From assembly GCF_054482595.1 (NCBI RefSeq), contig NZ_CM137008.1: 64,000 bases of DNA; one strand, given 5' to 3'. The position numbers and the translations under genes were made by a program. The notes under the pieces were generated by a model that saw only the letters and a list, made by a program, of their open reading frames with translations, did no database searches and was not told the DNA's origin. Below, piece after piece: positions 15,341 to 48,625 of the stretch. Positions within the stretch are counted from its first letter, which is position 1, and the number at the start of each line of letters is the position of its first letter.

Positions 15341-17266
15341 TTATTTAGCTTGAACCGTTAATATTTTCCCTCCAGAATATTCTGTAAGATTACTTATTTC
15401 ATTAGCCAAAAGCGCTTTGAACATATTTCGGTCCTGCCCGAAAACAACGCCAGAAAAGAAAGTCCCAAGGTTGCGGTAGCCGCCTACGGTCGGCATACGG
15501 ATAAACAGGTAAGACGTACCCTCGTACGTGCCGGTAAACCAAGCATCATAATCTGTGAGAGATTGGTTATCACAGTGAGCAGCTCTAACTAATTTTGCGC
15601 GGGTAGAGATATTGCTGCCTACTGTATTAAGGTCATACGCACCCGATATAGGATTAAGATCTTCCCCGCTGCGTAATGTATAAATAGTCCCAATGCACCC
15701 TCGTTTCCCATACTGACCACCAACGATACGATAATACGGCCCAGCAGACTGGTCTGGATTCGGCAACGCCATATCCCGACACATAGTGGTACTGAACGTT
15801 GGTATGGTTGCCAGCCCACCAAGATTACCTAATGTAGCGAAAGTTGCAGTTTTCGTGTCGTATGAATTCCTTTGAGGCCACGACGTTTCAAACTTATTGC
15901 TGTACACGATTTCTAACTTAGCACCGTTAGTTAAACGGGCCATCGCGCCATTGAAAGTAGTGGTCGAGCTGGCAATTAGTTGCTTAATACTTACTTTAGC
16001 ATAACCAGATAGGTCAAACATGTAGCTACCTGCAGCCTGCGTTTGATCGTACAGATGTATATTATCTATCTGTAAGTTAGCCCCGGTGCCCTTAATAATC
16101 GTACCGCTGTTCTGACGTGAAGGTTGTTCACAACCTAAAGACGAAATGCTGTACGAGCCTGCGTTAAAAATATACGGAATCCCAGCGCAATCGTCAGCGG
16201 CTAATGGACCAATTTCACAATATGAGCCCGTCAACTCAAAGGCACAGTAGTTTGTTTTAAACGCGTTACATTGGGATACTACGTAGCTTGCCCCCCCATG
16301 TATATGAATACCACCATATATCCCGGTAGCGTCGGAACCTTGGACAACGATTTCGCGGATGGAAACACCAACGAAGGTATTGCCGCCAAAATACATCCCC
16401 CATTTTTGCGCAAGGATAAACAGATCACTAAATTCCTGGTATACGGCGGTATTGGGAGTGTAATACCCGTAACTATCCGTTGTATCGTCCAGGATGCGTA
16501 GTCCACGGACAACATTACCACGTTTACCCTTGTTATAGAAAACAGCGTTAATATCCTGAGTTCCTACCGCCGTTTTGCGAATAATGGATGCACGACCCTC
16601 CCCGACGAATCGGCTACCATTTGGTTGATAGTATTTCTCATTGTAAACATCTTCCAAATCGTAAAGAAGAATAGAGTCCGATATCTCATATTCGCCAGCG
16701 GGCACAAATATAGTTTTTCCCAGTTGCGCGGATACAAGCGATGCTCGATTAAAAGAGAGCGTCCAATCTGGATCTGAATCCAGTTTAAAGTCCAGTACAG
16801 AAATAGTTTCAGAGTTTTTCTGGTGTTGCGTTCGATTTACGGCCCCGTTAAATGGTTGCCGAACAGCTATCTTCGCATCATTAACAATAGTAGGACCATA
16901 GTCTTGCGCCAACTCTGACCTTAGTTGATCAGGGTCATACTTAAGCACATTCGGAAAATAGAACTGCTGTGCACCATATGCATCATAAACAGCCATAGAA
17001 TGGCCTTGCACAGTTACGAACTTGGCAATCTGTCCGTTATATACAGGATACCCGCCAGCGTTAATGATGATTGGCTGTGCAACAGGAACGTGAGAACCGT
17101 CTTCATTCTCTACATAAACCTGAATCTGGTTTTCAGGATTTACCGGGTCAGTGTCAATTTTTCCGATATAAATTTTGCCATTGGCAACCGCTTTAAAAGA
17201 ACGCGCCATAGTGAAGAGTTGCGAAGGCATACTCACTACAACATTGGCATTTATTGAATCTGTCAT
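15341..17266 (-). CDS. P22-type tailspike (641 aa): conserved N-terminal head-binding domain, divergent receptor-binding body
   Basis: N-terminus [62 protein letters not shown]... closely parallels the P22 gp9 head-binding domain (recalled); remainder is beta-helix-like with different sequence. Confidence 0.85.
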
Positions 17267-17465
17267 TTAATTTGCTCCAGATACAAGGAATCGCCGCAGC
17301 ATGGCTACGGTTGATGTTTGTTGCATACCGAAATGGTACGATTGTTGATTTGTACAGTAGGTTTTACGATGCCATTCCACCCATTTGGTGAGGCATTGAT
17401 GATGTACAGCAAATACGATGAGGCGCAGTTCCACTTCGGCATAATGCCATATTTTTTCTTTGCCA

Positions 17466-18194
17466 TTATGCAACATTACTCCCATGAATCAGGTGTTGTA
17501 GTGCTTTAACACCTTCCTCATTGTAGCGGAATGCTTCCACCTGTTTGCTGGAATGCGCAGATTTATCCAGGAAGAACTTCCCGTACTGCTCAGTTTTGAG
17601 GTTGTTTGCGTTAGCAATGCGACCAATCTTGTTGGCCGTTACCCCAAGCTGCTCTGCAACCTCCCCTGCTGAGTAGTAATGCTCTTCTATTGCTGGAAGA
17701 GGTATTGCATTAAAACCAACGATCGGGTTGATTATGCTTGCTGCCGCAGTCTGCTTTGCTTCCGGCGCAAGATTTGGCATCAAATCGAACAGATTGGTAA
17801 CAGCTTCAACCGTCATTTTCAATGTTCGCGCCTGGCGATACTCAACAAGTCCACTAGACGATTTACCGCTTTTAATGTGCGCTTCTTGCATACTTTCAAG
17901 TTGGTCTACAAGTGAGCGGCGAACAGCTTTAGATTCACGAGCAGCCACTCGAAGGGCTTGCTTAATTGACATAACAACTTTTTCAGAAGTTGTCTTGTTT
18001 GATTTTTGAACTACGAAAATTTCGTAGTGCTCACCTTCAAGTTCATCCTTAATGCGTGCAATAAAGTCGTTATTGCGGACTTCTTTTTCCCCGCACTGTC
18101 TACGAGCATGATTGACCATCTCTAACAGGTACTGGCTATCAATGGTTTTATCCGTGACAACGGATCCGATGTTTGCTACATTCTTAAAAGTCAT
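17466..18194 (-). CDS. Putative antirepressor-like/regulatory protein (243 aa)
   Basis: ORF 17466..18245 trimmed to ATG at 18194 with AAGGA RBS; C-terminal region loosely resembles KilA-C/ORF6C-type antirepressor tails; sits between ant and tailspike. Confidence 0.35.
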   Translation of the reverse strand: MTFKNVANIGSVVTDKTIDSQYLLEMVNHARRQCGEKEVRNNDFIARIKDELEGEHYEIFVVQKSNKTTSEKVVMSIKQALRVAARESKAVRRSLVDQLESMQEAHIKSGKSSSGLVEYRQARTLKMTVEAVTNLFDLMPNLAPEAKQTAAASIINPIVGFNAIPLPAIEEHYYSAGEVAEQLGVTANKIGRIANANNLKTEQYGKFFLDKSAHSSKQVEAFRYNEEGVKALQHLIHGSNVA

Positions 18195-18282
18195 TAGGCA
18201 TTCCTTATGTGGTAGTAAGGGTGTGACATAGGCCGCCAGCAGCACACTGGCGGTTTTCTTTTTGCGCCGTCCGGCGCACCAA

Positions 18283-18909
18283 TCAATGAATCCATTCCTC
18301 GCCGCGCAGTTTTGCCAGCATTGGCTGAGCGTTCTTTACGACAAAATTGTTGGTATCAAGATTCTTCATTTCACGAAGAAGTGATTTCTTGGTTTCTTCT
18401 GACATGTAGCGAGTCTCATATGCAATATCGTAAATCCTTCCTGAAAGCTCAGAACCAATTTGCTTCATTCCTGGGTAGATGTGTTTGCACATTTGTTGAC
18501 TCTTCTCCATCCACAATTGTAAGTAGCAGAGATTAACCAGTTCTTCGTCAGTAAACTGTTTTGCAATCGGTGAGCATTCTGCCTGCCGATCCAAAATATC
18601 CAGCACCCAGCGGCGGAACTCTTTGGCTACCTGAGTGCGAGCAAACATCGCGATTAGGTGGGCACCGCGTAGTGAGAAAACACGCACTTTTTTGCGATAA
18701 TTTCCTGAGGTACTCACTTCGAGTACCTGAGTCATTCCGGCGCTAAACTCATCGCTATACTTGTTATAAATCATTGTTACTGCACGACTATTTGCGTATT
18801 TAAGTGCAGATGCAATATTAGATGATGTAAACCAAACACCATGCATATCACGGGTGGGCACCAATTCAACTCCGTGGAAGTTATAATCTGATTTTGCTAC
18901 AATATTCAT
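18283..18909 (-). CDS. ant: Antirepressor with Bro-N domain (about 208 aa; start uncertain)
   Basis: FHGVELVPTRDMHGVWFTSSNIASALKY...FSLRGAHLIAMFARTQVAKEFRRWVLDIL is Bro-N-like; ATG at 18909 has AAGGAA RBS; longer frame to 18993 would overlap arc. Confidence 0.6.
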   Translation of the reverse strand: MNIVAKSDYNFHGVELVPTRDMHGVWFTSSNIASALKYANSRAVTMIYNKYSDEFSAGMTQVLEVSTSGNYRKKVRVFSLRGAHLIAMFARTQVAKEFRRWVLDILDRQAECSPIAKQFTDEELVNLCYLQLWMEKSQQMCKHIYPGMKQIGSELSGRIYDIAYETRYMSEETKKSLLREMKNLDTNNFVVKNAQPMLAKLRGEEWIH

Positions 18910-18982
18910 GTTAGTTTCCTTGCATACGGTTACTGACATAGAGGCCCGGTTTGTGTTCACGCACTGCCGGGCTTCACTATTT

Positions 18983-19156
18983 TTACTGGGCATTAGCTCT
19001 TTCCTCTCTCAGGCTTTTAGCCAGTCGCTGCACAATCGCAGAGTTGATAGAAATTCCATCCATTTCAGCAACACGTCTAATCTCCTCCTTCATTCGCGCT
19101 GGCAAACGAAGCTGGAAACTTTGACTTTTACGACCTGTGTAAAGCACATCTTTCAT
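18983..19156 (-). CDS. arc: Arc-like ribbon-helix-helix repressor (57 aa)
   Basis: MKDVLYTGRKSQSFQLRLPARMKEEIRRVAEMDGISINSAIVQRL resembles P22 Arc (MetJ/Arc RHH fold). Confidence 0.7.
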   Translation of the reverse strand: MKDVLYTGRKSQSFQLRLPARMKEEIRRVAEMDGISINSAIVQRLAKSLREERANAQ

Positions 19157-19183
19157 AAGTAATCCTCCCACAATGATACCAAC

Positions 19184-19199
19184 TTGGTTCTAGAACCAA
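19184..19199. promoter_or_regulatory. immI operator candidate: perfect 16-bp palindrome
   Basis: TTGGTTCTAGAACCAA in the divergent arc-mnt intergenic region. Confidence 0.6.
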
Positions 19200-19267
19200 T
19201 TTAACACCATTTATTTTGATGTCAAGTTGGTGCTATTGTTTAGCGAACATCTTTACGTTGAGGTCAT

Positions 19268-19588
19268 ATGAGCAAGTTCCCTAGTCATGAAATGGATAGG
19301 TTCAATATCAGGCTTCCTGCAGGAATGCGGGATGCTATAGCTGAACGAGCCAAACGTAACGGCAGATCAATGAACTCAGAGATTGTTCAGATACTGGAAG
19401 ATGCCTTGAATGCAGAAAATACACTCGGGGAAATAGCAGATAAAATCAACAGCGTCTCGGTTCCGCTAAATGTTGATGCGCTAGTTCAACTTCAAGCCCA
19501 GGTTATCGCCATGCAAAAAGAAATACAGGAAAAGTTCAGAGAGCAGAACGAAAAGTTGAGAGAACTGCTAAACAAAAAAACCACCTGA
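19268..19588 (+). CDS. mnt: Mnt-like repressor (106 aa)
   Basis: N-terminal RHH motif FNIRLPAGMRDAIAERAKRNGRSMNSEIVQILEDAL and C-terminal coiled coil ending KKTT, as in P22 Mnt (recalled). Confidence 0.75.
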   Translation: MSKFPSHEMDRFNIRLPAGMRDAIAERAKRNGRSMNSEIVQILEDALNAENTLGEIADKINSVSVPLNVDALVQLQAQVIAMQKEIQEKFREQNEKLRELLNKKTT

Positions 19589-19612
19589 CGGTGGGTTAAT
19601 TTTTGCCTTTTT
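19579..19612 (+). terminator. Rho-independent terminator after mnt
   Basis: aaaccacc tgac ggtgggtt followed by T-rich tract. Confidence 0.6.
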
Positions 19613-19686
19613 TGGACCATATTGACTACTCATAAAATGAGATCAATATTTAATCGCCCAATAACGGGTGCATGTTGAGGTATATC

Positions 19687-19866
19687 ATGGCGAAAAAACC
19701 AGGTGAAAACACAGGAAAAAACGGCGGAATATACCAAGAAGTTGGCCCGCGCGGAGGTAAGAAAGACAATTTTGCCACCGTCAAGGACAACGAAAGGCTT
19801 CCGCCAACAACAAAGCCAGGTCATGGCTGGGTATTAGATAAGCGAACTCCAGACAGCAAAAAGTAA
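19687..19866 (+). CDS. Small Gly/Lys-rich protein, YjzC-like (59 aa)
   Basis: ATG at 19687 with GAGG 6 nt upstream; MAKKPGENTGKNGGIYQEVGPRGG...LPPTTKPGHGWVL resembles YjzC-family small proteins (recalled, low certainty). Confidence 0.45.
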   Translation: MAKKPGENTGKNGGIYQEVGPRGGKKDNFATVKDNERLPPTTKPGHGWVLDKRTPDSKK

Positions 19867-19879
19867 TAATCAAGCCGGG

Positions 19880-20245
19880 TCACTCCGGCTTTTTGATATG
19901 TCGCTCGCAGAACTCAACAAGCCTGCTCATTAAGTAGCAGTAAGTCTCGTTGGCTCTTCCTGGTTCAACATCAACGCCGACCCTTGAGCAGATATCGAAT
20001 GCCATGTGAGCGCACTCATGGGCAATAGTAGATAGTTTGCCATTGAACACACCTATCACATGCAAAACACCATTCTCGCTGCTCATTGTATGAGACGCTC
20101 CGTTGGCATCCGAGTCCTGCACGTCCACGCCAAGTTTTTGATGCAGGCGTTGCCATTCTGGAAAGTCTCTGCAAAACACAATTGTACCGCTCTCAAAGAG
20201 CGGAACGAGCATTTTTGGTACGTTTCCAATGTTAACTTTTTTCAT
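19880..20245 (-). CDS. Hypothetical 121-aa protein with HExxH motif (possible minimal zinc metallopeptidase)
   Basis: ATG at 20245 with AGGA RBS; translation contains IAHECAHMAFD (HExxH) and a downstream Glu; no TM segment; stop lies inside hairpin 19871..19893. Confidence 0.5.
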   Translation of the reverse strand: MKKVNIGNVPKMLVPLFESGTIVFCRDFPEWQRLHQKLGVDVQDSDANGASHTMSSENGVLHVIGVFNGKLSTIAHECAHMAFDICSRVGVDVEPGRANETYCYLMSRLVEFCERHIKKPE

Positions 20246-20275
20246 GGTATCCTGCTCAAAACTAAGGAGGTTGGT

Positions 20276-20464
20276 GTGAAGAAAAAATTTGTAAACGTTG
20301 CAAAGTGCGCAATTTTTATATTTTTTATGACCTTTTACGGATTTAGTGCCGGAGAAGGTTTCGATCGTGATGCCAATGCATTCAGTTTCTTTTGTCTGTC
20401 TATAGTGGTCATAATTGTATGGGTGGAATTAAAGCAAACATTGTTTCATGTGCTAGGGAAATAA
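20276..20464 (+). CDS. Small membrane protein (62 aa, GTG start)
   Basis: AAGGAGG 5 nt upstream of GTG at 20276; two hydrophobic helices (AKCAIFIFFMTFYGF, FFCLSIVVIIVWV). Confidence 0.4.
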   Translation: MKKKFVNVAKCAIFIFFMTFYGFSAGEGFDRDANAFSFFCLSIVVIIVWVELKQTLFHVLGK

Positions 20465-20481
20465 CCATCCATGGCATTTAG

Positions 20482-22347
20482 TCACTGCTGTGTTGCCTCA
20501 GTGGCAAGCAGCGGTCTGATGGCATTTGCAGCGTTACTTAATGCTCTTTCATAGGCTGGCGTTCCTGCTTTGGTGTTTGCCAGACGTAAGAGCGCATTCC
20601 TGGCCATAGGGCTTTCATAAACCCTCGACATAAGGCCAATCCCTGTTTCCCCAGCCAATAGCGCGCCTCCGGTTTTTAGGTTACCAATAACCCTTACCAA
20701 AGGCGCGAGTGTCATGCCAGTCTTCGTCACAACATTAGCCTCAGATGCTCTTTTGGTAGCATCGAGAATAGATAACATCCCCTCTATCTCTTTTCCGTTC
20801 TTCCCACCAAATACAGTTTTAAACACCTGACCATTTGCTTGTTTTTGCAGCTTGCCAAGCTCGGTCATCATTTTCTGAGGGCTGTCACCTACCTTGTCAG
20901 CTATTTTGCTGATATATGCCGCCCTTAGCATGTCTTTACCTTTTTGATCGAGTTTCCCGTACAATCGAGCTATATCTGACCCATATTGTCCATACACAAT
21001 GGTATTTACAGCCTCGGGAGTTAAATCTCCTTTGTTTAGAACGTTTTTAAGGCGCGTTTGAGTTGCATGTGTTGCCATTTTTGCATAATCAGCTTTTCCC
21101 GCTCTCCATGCTGAAGCATCTTTTGGGCTAAGTCCTTTCGCTATAGATTTACTAAGGCTATTGGTTAGCGAGTTATAGACCCTGTCGACCATTGTTTGCG
21201 ACATTGATGGCAGAACTGTACGATCGCCTTTTACGTCAATGCGGAACTGAGTTCTCAGCTTATCAAGTAACTCAAAGGCATCATCTCCATTTGTTATCTC
21301 CTGAATGGCATTCTTATAATCATTAAGCGCAGAAATGGTCTGGGTGTCAGAAACACCTTTAAGTTTCCCAAGTTCGTTTACTGCTCCGTCGATAGCTCTT
21401 ATGGCGCCACTTGTATCAACTGGCTTTCCAACCATTCTTCCTGACAGGCTGTTTAGTTTTGACTTGGCTAACGATTTTTCCCTTGCAACGCCTGACTTTA
21501 GACTATCAACGACTACAGATGGATCGTAGTCGCCGTATTTTTCGGTGAAGCGATTAACAAGCTTGGTTCTGGCATCCTGCTGTGCGGCTCTCATTGGTCC
21601 AGTACCAGCTATGACTCCTTCTGAGTAACCCTGCAGTTGATTGCCAAGTTTTGTTTTTGGAGGAACTACATCTGATGTCATAACTGGTACATCTGCCGCA
21701 GCGGCACGCTTGAGCAATTGCTGATCTGCTGGTGATATTTCGCCACGAACAGCAGTAATTCCACGCCCTATTCCCTTTGCTGCTGCGGAAAGAACACCCT
21801 GAGCGGCAAGGTTAACTCCGGCATTTTTAGCTGCATTTTGTGCGAAATCGCCTTTCTGATTTGCGGCCTCTGCCAGTGATCCAATAGCCATGCTTCCTGC
21901 CGTTCCAACTCCTGGAACTAAATACCCGCCAATTGTTTCTCCAGCTTGCGCATAAGGGTCTGTCGGTCGCTCGACAGGGCGATAAACATCATCCAAAACC
22001 TTGGGGCCGCCAAGCCCCTGGCTGATTGCATTAATCAGACTTGCGCCACCCTGCAATACGTCAAATGGTATGTTTACCAGACCGCGACCAGCCTGCTCTG
22101 CAATTTGCCCTGCACTTTGACCACCAGTGAGCCAATCGCCAGCTTGTTGCATCAATGATGGTTCTTCTTTCTGCTGCTGAGGCGGAGGGTATGCTGCATA
22201 AAACTGATCTCTTGCTTCAGCCCATTTGTCACCAGCCTTAGGGGCAACAACCTCATCAAAATATTGCGCTTGAGCCTGTGCTTTCTGTTCTTCAGTTAAC
22301 GCCTGATACTGTGGAGAGGCGATAACATCTTTCCATGCTTTAGCCAT
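20482..22347 (-). CDS. P22 gp16-like ejection (internal virion) protein (621 aa)
   Basis: Size and order after gp20; last gene of the P22-type ejection-protein set. Confidence 0.75.
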   Translation of the reverse strand: MAKAWKDVIASPQYQALTEEQKAQAQAQYFDEVVAPKAGDKWAEARDQFYAAYPPPQQQKEEPSLMQQAGDWLTGGQSAGQIAEQAGRGLVNIPFDVLQGGASLINAISQGLGGPKVLDDVYRPVERPTDPYAQAGETIGGYLVPGVGTAGSMAIGSLAEAANQKGDFAQNAAKNAGVNLAAQGVLSAAAKGIGRGITAVRGEISPADQQLLKRAAAADVPVMTSDVVPPKTKLGNQLQGYSEGVIAGTGPMRAAQQDARTKLVNRFTEKYGDYDPSVVVDSLKSGVAREKSLAKSKLNSLSGRMVGKPVDTSGAIRAIDGAVNELGKLKGVSDTQTISALNDYKNAIQEITNGDDAFELLDKLRTQFRIDVKGDRTVLPSMSQTMVDRVYNSLTNSLSKSIAKGLSPKDASAWRAGKADYAKMATHATQTRLKNVLNKGDLTPEAVNTIVYGQYGSDIARLYGKLDQKGKDMLRAAYISKIADKVGDSPQKMMTELGKLQKQANGQVFKTVFGGKNGKEIEGMLSILDATKRASEANVVTKTGMTLAPLVRVIGNLKTGGALLAGETGIGLMSRVYESPMARNALLRLANTKAGTPAYERALSNAANAIRPLLATEATQQ

Positions 22348-48016: not shown

Positions 48017-48439
48017 GTGGAAGAACAAGCAAACAAGATTCTCGTAGAACTACTGCAAAAAGCCAGCAATGGAATAGACGCGGCTGTTTCATTTAGCCAG
48101 GCACAGATTCCTGATGTTGTTCATCAGTTGCTAATATGGAGTTTTGTCCATAGCGCACTTTTCCAAGTGACTGGGTTGTTGCTTTTAATTGCAGCAATGA
48201 AACTTCCTAGTTTTGCAAGAACGGCAAGAAATAATGGCGAGAGATGGACGTCTTTCGATGGATGTCCAAATGATGGATATTTTATATCTTCGTTTTATTA
48301 CGATATATGCACTGTATTTGCTCCTGTATTTGGCCCAATTATTGGCGTTTTAATTATTGCCTTCAATTTCGAATGGTTGAAGATTTGGCTTGCACCTAAG
48401 TTATTCCTAATTGAATATGCAGCGTCATTGGTTAAGTAA
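48017..48439 (+). CDS. Hypothetical membrane protein (140 aa, GTG start) directly after N
   Basis: GAGG 7 nt upstream of GTG 48017; two or three predicted TM helices. Confidence 0.5.
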   Translation: MEEQANKILVELLQKASNGIDAAVSFSQAQIPDVVHQLLIWSFVHSALFQVTGLLLLIAAMKLPSFARTARNNGERWTSFDGCPNDGYFISSFYYDICTVFAPVFGPIIGVLIIAFNFEWLKIWLAPKLFLIEYAASLVK

Positions 48440-48625
48440 TTTCAGGCCGAATATTCGGCCTTTATTTTTAGCATAAACAACAGAGGTGAATATGAACGCA
48501 GTTGAATTTACAAAATGGATGGCAGAGCAAGATATCACAGGAGCCGACGAAAAGGCTGTGTACTACATGGCTATGCTATGGATTCACAAAGCAAAAGAGG
48601 CTGCAAATGCTCTTGGAGGTGAGTG

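Follow-up and report, generated by a model that had tools for sequence, protein, structure and literature searches.

The P22 immI region and ribbon-helix-helix operators

The immI region of phage P22 is the closest described system to the locus considered here, with mnt divergent from arc-ant and the whole module placed between the gene-16-type and tailspike genes. Control of the antirepressor decides whether prophages carrying such a region stay silent. According to the GenBank annotation, from which the P22 operator positions were taken, the Arc operator (Oarc) lies inside the spacer between the -35 and -10 elements of the arc-ant promoter (Pant), and the Mnt operator (Omnt) is found just past the -10, ahead of arc. 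Arc, Mnt and AmrZ read DNA via three beta-strand residues, with two ribbon-helix-helix (RHH) dimers binding one face of the DNA helix. In the crystal structure of AmrZ on amrZ1, residues K18, V20 and R22 read two GGC half-sites lying 5 bp apart (PMC3325190). The site between the two genes that flank the P22 module has been termed the 'ant moron' (PMC2629481).

The arc-mnt module of the window

A module of the same type occurs in the window, by which the whole 64-kb stretch of DNA analysed is meant. As listed in Table 1, an antirepressor gene stands downstream of a short RHH gene (arc-like) on the same strand, and a longer RHH gene (mnt-like) diverges from them, all in the late region between the genes for a gene-16-type DNA transfer or ejection protein and for the tailspike. 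The interval ~17430-20300 has an identical counterpart in a prophage of E. coli SBF22, and the RefSeq gene calls there agree; the SBF22 match is restricted to this interval, and the genes outside it were checked directly in the window.

Table 1. Coordinates of the control-region elements and neighbouring genes in the 64-kb window
Feature	Position	Strand	Description
Tailspike gene	15344-17266	minus	
Second antirepressor-family gene	17466-18194	minus	phrog_1726 anti-repressor, E 9e-101
ant-like antirepressor gene	18283-18909	minus	Bro-N and P22AR C-terminal domains (P22AR_C)
arc-like gene	18983-19156	minus	57 aa, ribbon-helix-helix, PF03869, E 8e-12
Extended imperfect palindrome around O1	19172-19211	.	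20-nt arms 19172-19191/19192-19211, 75% complementary
O1, perfect 16-bp palindrome	19184-19199	.	TTGGTTCTAGAACCAA; proposed primary operator of the Mnt-like repressor
Predicted extended -10 of the arc-ant promoter (Pant-like)	19198-19206	minus	TGtTAAATT, 10/12 matches, TG present
Predicted -35 of the arc-ant promoter	19220-19225	minus	TTGACA, 16-nt spacer to the -10
Half-site-like copy	19227-19235	plus	TTGGTGCTA, 8/9 identical to the O1 half-site TTGGTTCTA
Predicted extended -10 for mnt	19232-19240	plus	TGCTATTGT, conserved TGCTAnnnT
mnt-like gene	19268-19588	plus	106 aa, PF03869, E 1.6e-20
DNA transfer protein gene (P22 gene-16-type)	20485-22347	minus	

The arc-like gene is the first of the operon under the promoter described below, and its product, WP_000655894.1, shares 42% identity with P22 Arc. 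The second antirepressor-family gene follows ant on the same strand and is probably co-transcribed with arc-ant, so that a single promoter may control two antirepressors. In the divergent direction, the mnt-like protein, WP_000033146.1, shows 54% identity by BLASTP to residues 8-44 of P22 Mnt (37 aa, the DNA-binding domain). Its N-terminal RHH domain contains the beta-strand DRFNIRLP, with reading residues R-N-R, and its matches in the PDB are AmrZ (the best), pArc and 1mnt (E 7e-8). Residues 7-96 match PHROG 795, which is also the best-scoring PHROG of P22 Mnt. The C-terminus has a helical heptad-like pattern and the KKTT end found in P22 Mnt, the BLASTP alignment covering the N-terminal domain only.

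Two further observations concern the surroundings of these genes. At ~17369-17435 (plus strand, within the ORF 17318-17509) there is a remnant of a second, P22-Mnt-like gene (MPFHPFGEALMMYSKYDEAQFH...), whose SBF22 counterpart is intact, encodes a 95 aa 'Arc family DNA-binding protein' and stands beside the tailspike gene; the remnant departs from the SBF22 gene after ~22 codons. The arc-ant junction of P22 carries the sar antisense RNA, and in the arc-ant gap of the window the plus strand at 18900-18995, opposite both genes, folds into two stable hairpins (-35.1 kcal/mol, z = -4.6). These lie at ~18908-18939 and 18941-18975 and are followed by TTCACTATTTTT, the second being terminator-like, and TGCTACAAT forms an extended -10 at 18896-18904. 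On these features the segment is a candidate sar-like antisense RNA; an Rfam search of 18900-18995 gave no sar match, its sole result being a symR match below threshold.

A perfect palindrome in the arc-mnt gap

The original prediction drew attention to a perfect 16-bp palindrome between arc and mnt, termed O1 here, and its sequence and self-complementarity have been verified. TTGGTTCTAGAACCAA equals its own reverse complement, the perfect symmetry breaking off at 19183/19200, and its pentamers TTGGT and ACCAA have their centres 11 bp apart. The palindrome had also been described as centred in a 111-bp interval. The length of the gap is correct (arc ATG at 19156 on the minus strand, mnt ATG at 19268 on the plus strand), but the placement is not: O1 has its centre at 19191.5 and the gap at ~19212, leaving 27 bp to the arc ATG and 68 bp to the mnt ATG.

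Two perfect 16-bp palindromes were seen in the 64-kb window, with 1.37 +/- 1.15 expected from first-order Markov simulations. As such a number is unremarkable, the count alone offers no argument for O1, and window-wide rarity was dropped as one. Other features do lift O1 above chance, namely its location in a regulatory gap, the enrichment of its pentamers together with the rarity of CTAG, and the retention of the outer TTGG/CCAA. Simple arithmetic gives a chance of 0.0015 for such a palindrome within the 111-bp gap (~96 positions x 4^-8). At least four TTGGT/ACCAA pentamers occur in only one 111-bp stretch of the 64 kb, which is the gap itself (Poisson 3e-4), where they lie at 19178, 19184, 19195 and 19227. 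CTAG is rare in the window, at 24 occurrences where base composition predicts ~250, a ten-fold under-representation of the kind typical of enterobacterial DNA; the core of O1 is one of the 24. No second copy of O1 better than 3 mismatches, which is chance level, was found in the 64-kb window.

The other long perfect palindrome of the window, AGGCCGAATATTCGGCCT, is an 18 bp GC-rich hairpin at 48444-48461, directly after the stop of the ORF 48017-48439. Because the ORF ends at 48439 and the T-run TTTATTTTT comes after the hairpin, it is read as an ordinary intrinsic terminator.

These counts bear on the reading in which O1 has no protein partner and is either a chance palindrome or an RNA or DNA hairpin (a terminator, for example, or a structure of the 5'-UTR). 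The number of perfect 16-bp palindromes in the 64 kb is within chance and the other one is a terminator, as such a reading would have it. The RNA hairpin predicted for O1 is, however, weak and no better than that of shuffled sequence (z = 0.24), O1 has neither a GC-rich stem nor a T-run, its outer bases persist in relatives with diverged flanks, and different Mnt types go with different motifs. The hairpin or terminator form of this reading was dropped on account of the fold and of an Rfam search for O1 that gave only sub-threshold noise, and a site without any partner is considered extremely improbable.

Position relative to the predicted promoters

A consensus promoter scan of the gap yielded one strong site, on the minus strand, which would drive arc-ant. 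Its -10 hexamer TAAATT extends from 19203 to 19198, the final two bases being the first two of O1 in minus-strand reading, and the start point implied by the consensus prediction (~19191) coincides with the centre of O1. The extended -10 is conserved among the aligned relatives, and the -35 of P22 Pant is likewise TTGACA. A dyad site of ~17 bp at or just past the -10 and start point of the consensus-predicted promoter is thus present, as with Omnt, and since in P22 Omnt follows the -10 and Oarc lies in the spacer, O1 occupies the slot of the Mnt operator. A position like that of Oarc was not found, O1 being downstream of the -10 apart from the two shared bases. On the other strand, the extended -10 predicted for mnt belongs to a stretch in which GGTGCTA is invariant among the relatives, and each variant hexamer after it fits TAnnnT in the alignment. 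Both promoters of the gap are predictions from consensus matches.

The motif follows the Mnt type

Relatives of the region were drawn from GenBank phages, E. coli genomes and IMG/VR, giving 158 loci with 72 distinct arc-mnt control regions, and these were classed by the three DNA-reading beta-strand residues of their Arc-like and Mnt-like proteins. This type of control region is known from prophages of E. coli and from a handful of sequenced phages of Salmonella and Klebsiella. At least 80% of a 751-bp query was found in 12 of 5,426 complete E. coli genomes, and only five GenBank phage records have the control region, these being Salmonella phage Oslo (two records) and Klebsiella phages KP12, KpnBHU6 and klb_E.

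The motif TTGG-N8-CCAA was found in 34 of the 35 distinct regions whose Mnt has the strand FN[IV]RLP (reading residues R-N-R), the lone exception reading CTGG, a single mismatch, and it was absent from all 37 with other Mnt strands. The sequence of the site is therefore matched to the Mnt reading residues, as would be expected of an Omnt-like operator. No such relationship was found with the Arc type, contrary to what an Oarc-like site would show. The Arc of the window (strand FQLRLP, reading residues S-Q-R) occurs in 30 regions with the motif and 16 without it; R-N-R Mnt and the motif are found together with four Arc reading sets (S-Q-R, A-N-R, V-N-R and Q-S-R); and S-Q-R Arc also stands beside four other Mnt reading sets (five strand sequences), none of which has the motif. 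E. coli PK5 is an instructive case. Its Arc differs from that of the window only at residues 2 and 7 of 57, nucleotide similarity between the two goes no further than the arc start codon, its Mnt is of the R-T-R type, and it holds ATGACATCAccaTGATGTCAT where the window has O1.

The original prediction had proposed the palindrome as a candidate RHH operator for antirepressor control, leaving Arc or Mnt open as its reader. The first part has held up, given the two PF03869 proteins, the antirepressors downstream and the overlap with the promoter, and the comparison now favours Mnt (34/35 against 0/37, with independence from the Arc type and the P22 Mnt slot). An Arc-operator reading, in which O1 would let the Arc-like protein shut off its own arc-ant operon as at P22 Oarc, draws on the closeness of O1 to arc (27 bp from the ATG), on the binding of Arc-family proteins to dyad sites as dimers of dimers, on the inverted TAGA boxes in the O1 centre, which recall the P22 Arc operator, and on the failure to find another Arc operator in the gap. 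Against it, the same Arc residues occur in 16 distinct motif-less regions (PK5 with a nearly identical Arc among them) and three other Arc types occur with the motif; P22 Oarc sits between -35 and -10 and not past the -10; and the TAGA boxes of O1 overlap, in a centre that is its least conserved part (CTAGAA, CTAAAA, CTACAA, CCAGAA). Were Arc the reader of O1, the common PK5-type recombinant would deprive it of an operator, and this reading is given a very low probability. The co-variation with Mnt could partly reflect linkage, given that the intergenic DNA tends to travel with mnt and that the joints lie at the arc start, but linkage leaves unexplained why the same Arc would tolerate the loss of its operator.

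A different joint was seen in Stx-type prophages. In L009 (E. coli TUM1880) and L147-L173, the C-terminal two-thirds of mnt has ~94-96% DNA identity to that of the window, whereas the N-terminal strand of the Mnt-like protein (K-N-R) and the control region differ, which places the recombination joint within mnt, where the DNA-binding domain meets the C-terminal one.

Other Mnt types have palindromes of their own at the position equivalent to O1. For some types the automated best-palindrome finder was noisy, and their palindromes were taken from the raw intergenic sequence. R-T-R Mnt goes with GACATCA-N3-TGATGTC, V-N-R Mnt (the nearest to the H-N-R of P22) with ACCCCACsGTGGGGT, K-M-R Mnt with ATGTCACsGTGACAT, P-G-R Mnt with the TCACGGTGA-type, and both K-V-R and K-T-R Mnt with GGC-N5-GCC. 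In all, at least eight Mnt reading-residue sets were found, each with its own palindrome at the same promoter position. The GGC-N5-GCC of the K-V-R and K-T-R classes is of the AmrZ type, and for this reason the AmrZ crystal structure supports the pairing of the palindromes with the long RHH protein, a support that is not fully exclusive, as the Arc of those GGC-N5-GCC loci is K-T-R.

Conserved elements and additional half-site-like copies

An alignment of 37 distinct R-N-R control regions has shown a conserved block at ~19178-19240 with diverging flanks. Within O1, TTGG, CTA and AACCAA are nearly invariant and positions 19189 and 19193 are free to vary, the variants including TTCTAAAA, TTCTACAA, TGCTACAA, TACTACAA and TGCCAGAA. 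Since these two positions vary, the conserved feature is the pair of outer elements 11 bp apart and not the perfect symmetry, and this spacing fits two RHH dimers on one helix face. One locus, L184 (on the same contig as L048), is very divergent elsewhere and has kept the full 16-mer.

The symmetry extends, less perfectly, beyond O1. The 40-bp imperfect palindrome around it (Table 1) adds outer ACCA-type elements, GATACCAA on the left and TAACACCAT on the right, ~11 bp from the inner ones, and its counterpart in Klebsiella phage KP12 reaches 81% complementarity. A further half-site-like copy, TTGGTGCTA, adjoins the Pant -35 and overlaps the predicted mnt extended -10, TGCTATTGT. In KP12, the left half of O1 and the TTGGTGCTA copy form a 16-nt direct repeat, TGTCAACTTGGTTCTA / TGTCAAGTTGGTGCTA, 43 bp apart. 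Three operator-like copies, built from their own half-sites, are also present at comparable spacings in the R-T-R and K-M-R classes (19 + 26 bp; 16 + 27 bp). The comparison suggests a recurring layout, with a strong site on the Pant start, a weaker one in the spacer and one on the Pant -35. The weaker copies of the window (19172-19183, 19203-19211 and 19227-19235) may have a role in cooperative binding or in mnt autoregulation, the TTGGTGCTA copy being a possible secondary Mnt site for the latter: as it overlaps the predicted mnt -10, Mnt could limit its own synthesis at high concentration.

An operator specific to Arc was sought in the same regions. A k-mer search (k = 6-8) over all regions with S-Q-R Arc, across Mnt types, returned only ATGTCA, TGTCAA and ATGTCAA; the last, the only 7-mer common to all of them, corresponds to the -35 element TTGACAT. 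When the spacer and the stretch upstream of the arc ribosome-binding site were inspected visually, no consistent Arc element emerged. With the Arc operator thus unlocated, there is room for Arc binding beside or over the Mnt site.

One way to fill this room is a shared site, with Mnt on the core and Arc on an overlapping or adjacent generic element, the 40-bp block serving both. Such an element could be the widely conserved CAATGGTG beside the -10, or the -35-proximal bases. Consistent with it, the k-mer search detected no Arc-type-specific element, AATGGTG/CACCATT (19205-19211) is kept across many Arc and Mnt types, and the symmetry reaches 40 bp. The TG of the extended -10 nonetheless forms part of the CACCA in that stretch, so that promoter function alone could explain the conservation of this element, and the Arc reading residues vary by type, a variation that speaks against a single generic site for Arc. 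The -35 offers a further hint: the three V-N-R Arc regions from IMG/VR (L122, L184 and L208), with two Mnt types among them, share ATGGTGTCAAGTA at the Pant -35, where regions with the Arc type of the window read (A/G)ATGTCAAGT. This difference, known from three V-N-R sequences, is a possible clue to the place of Arc binding. Taken together, a shared site is judged unlikely.

The half-site copies could also be read as a whole. The gap would then be an array of phased Mnt-type half-sites, comprising the 40-bp pseudo-palindrome over the Pant -10/+1 and the copy over the Pant -35/mnt -10, with Arc proteins swapping freely and holding no private operator. This reading is judged unlikely. If true, Arc would act via a generic element or via the Mnt sites in a large prophage family, and Mnt would be both the gatekeeper of the antirepressor and its own autoregulator.

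A proposed mechanism of antirepressor control

The reading preferred here is that O1 is the primary operator of the divergent Mnt-like RHH repressor and the functional equivalent of P22 Omnt, which, on the sequence comparisons above, is considered quite likely. Two Mnt-like dimers, probably joined as a tetramer via their C-terminal helices as in P22 Mnt, would contact the outer TTGGT and ACCAA with beta-ribbons inserted into the major groove. Because O1 covers both the last two bases of the -10 and the predicted start point, a bound repressor would exclude RNA polymerase. In the lysogen, the Mnt-like repressor on 19184-19199 would bar the polymerase from the arc-ant promoter, and arc, ant and the second antirepressor gene would stay silent. 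Once the promoter fires, Arc from the same transcript would shut it again, as in P22. Binding of Mnt to O1, its oligomeric state and the transcription start points are all inferred. In Kapi1, a P22-like E. coli phage whose mnt-arc-ant is similar, but not identical, to that of P22, mnt transcripts were undetected in lysogens (PMC12922286), and thus Mnt-like genes may not always be maintenance repressors.

O1 offers a concrete and testable candidate operator for an uncharacterised Mnt-like repressor. The comparative series of reading residues and palindromes is perhaps more useful than O1 itself, as a natural data set for the RHH recognition code and as a source of orthogonal repressor-operator pairs.

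Comparison with AmrZ and P22

Among proteins of solved structure, the best match of the Mnt-like protein is AmrZ of Pseudomonas aeruginosa bound to amrZ1 (PDB 3QOQ). AmrZ reads two inverted half-sites as a dimer of dimers, through three beta-strand residues (PMC3325190), a mode of binding like that proposed here for the Mnt-like protein. AmrZ is, however, a chromosomal regulator of alginate and motility genes, whereas the protein of the window belongs to phage immunity, and the reading residues (K-V-R in AmrZ, R-N-R here) and the half-sites differ.

The likeness to P22 immI is closer. The gene order is the same, and, like Omnt, O1 is a dyad-symmetric site of 16-17 bp just after the arc-ant -10 and before arc. 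Likeness to P22 Arc and Oarc extends to the protein family, the control region and the binding of Arc as a dimer of dimers to a dyad site, but Oarc has no more than partial symmetry and is situated between -35 and -10, and the motif of the window is not linked to the Arc type. Several differences from Omnt have also been noted. The operator sequences, TTGGTTCTAGAACCAA in the window and AGGTCCACGGTGGACCT in P22, are unrelated and showed no similarity when compared, and the Mnt reading residues are R-N-R as opposed to H-N-R; on both grounds the window represents a different specificity class. O1 lies ~8 bp nearer to the -10 than Omnt does, and its core is flanked by extra half-site-like copies, unlike that of Omnt. 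The Mnt-like protein has 106 aa and P22 Mnt 83 aa, and the predicted mnt promoter of the window is back-to-back with Pant, whereas that of P22 overlaps Pant fully. The 16-mer TTGGTTCTAGAACCAA had no occurrence in the literature searched, and the papers on epsilon34, phage L and Kapi1, which describe immI variability, contain no operator of the O1 type. The locus can accordingly be regarded as a new sequence version of the known P22 switch, with a biology that is otherwise as P22 would predict.
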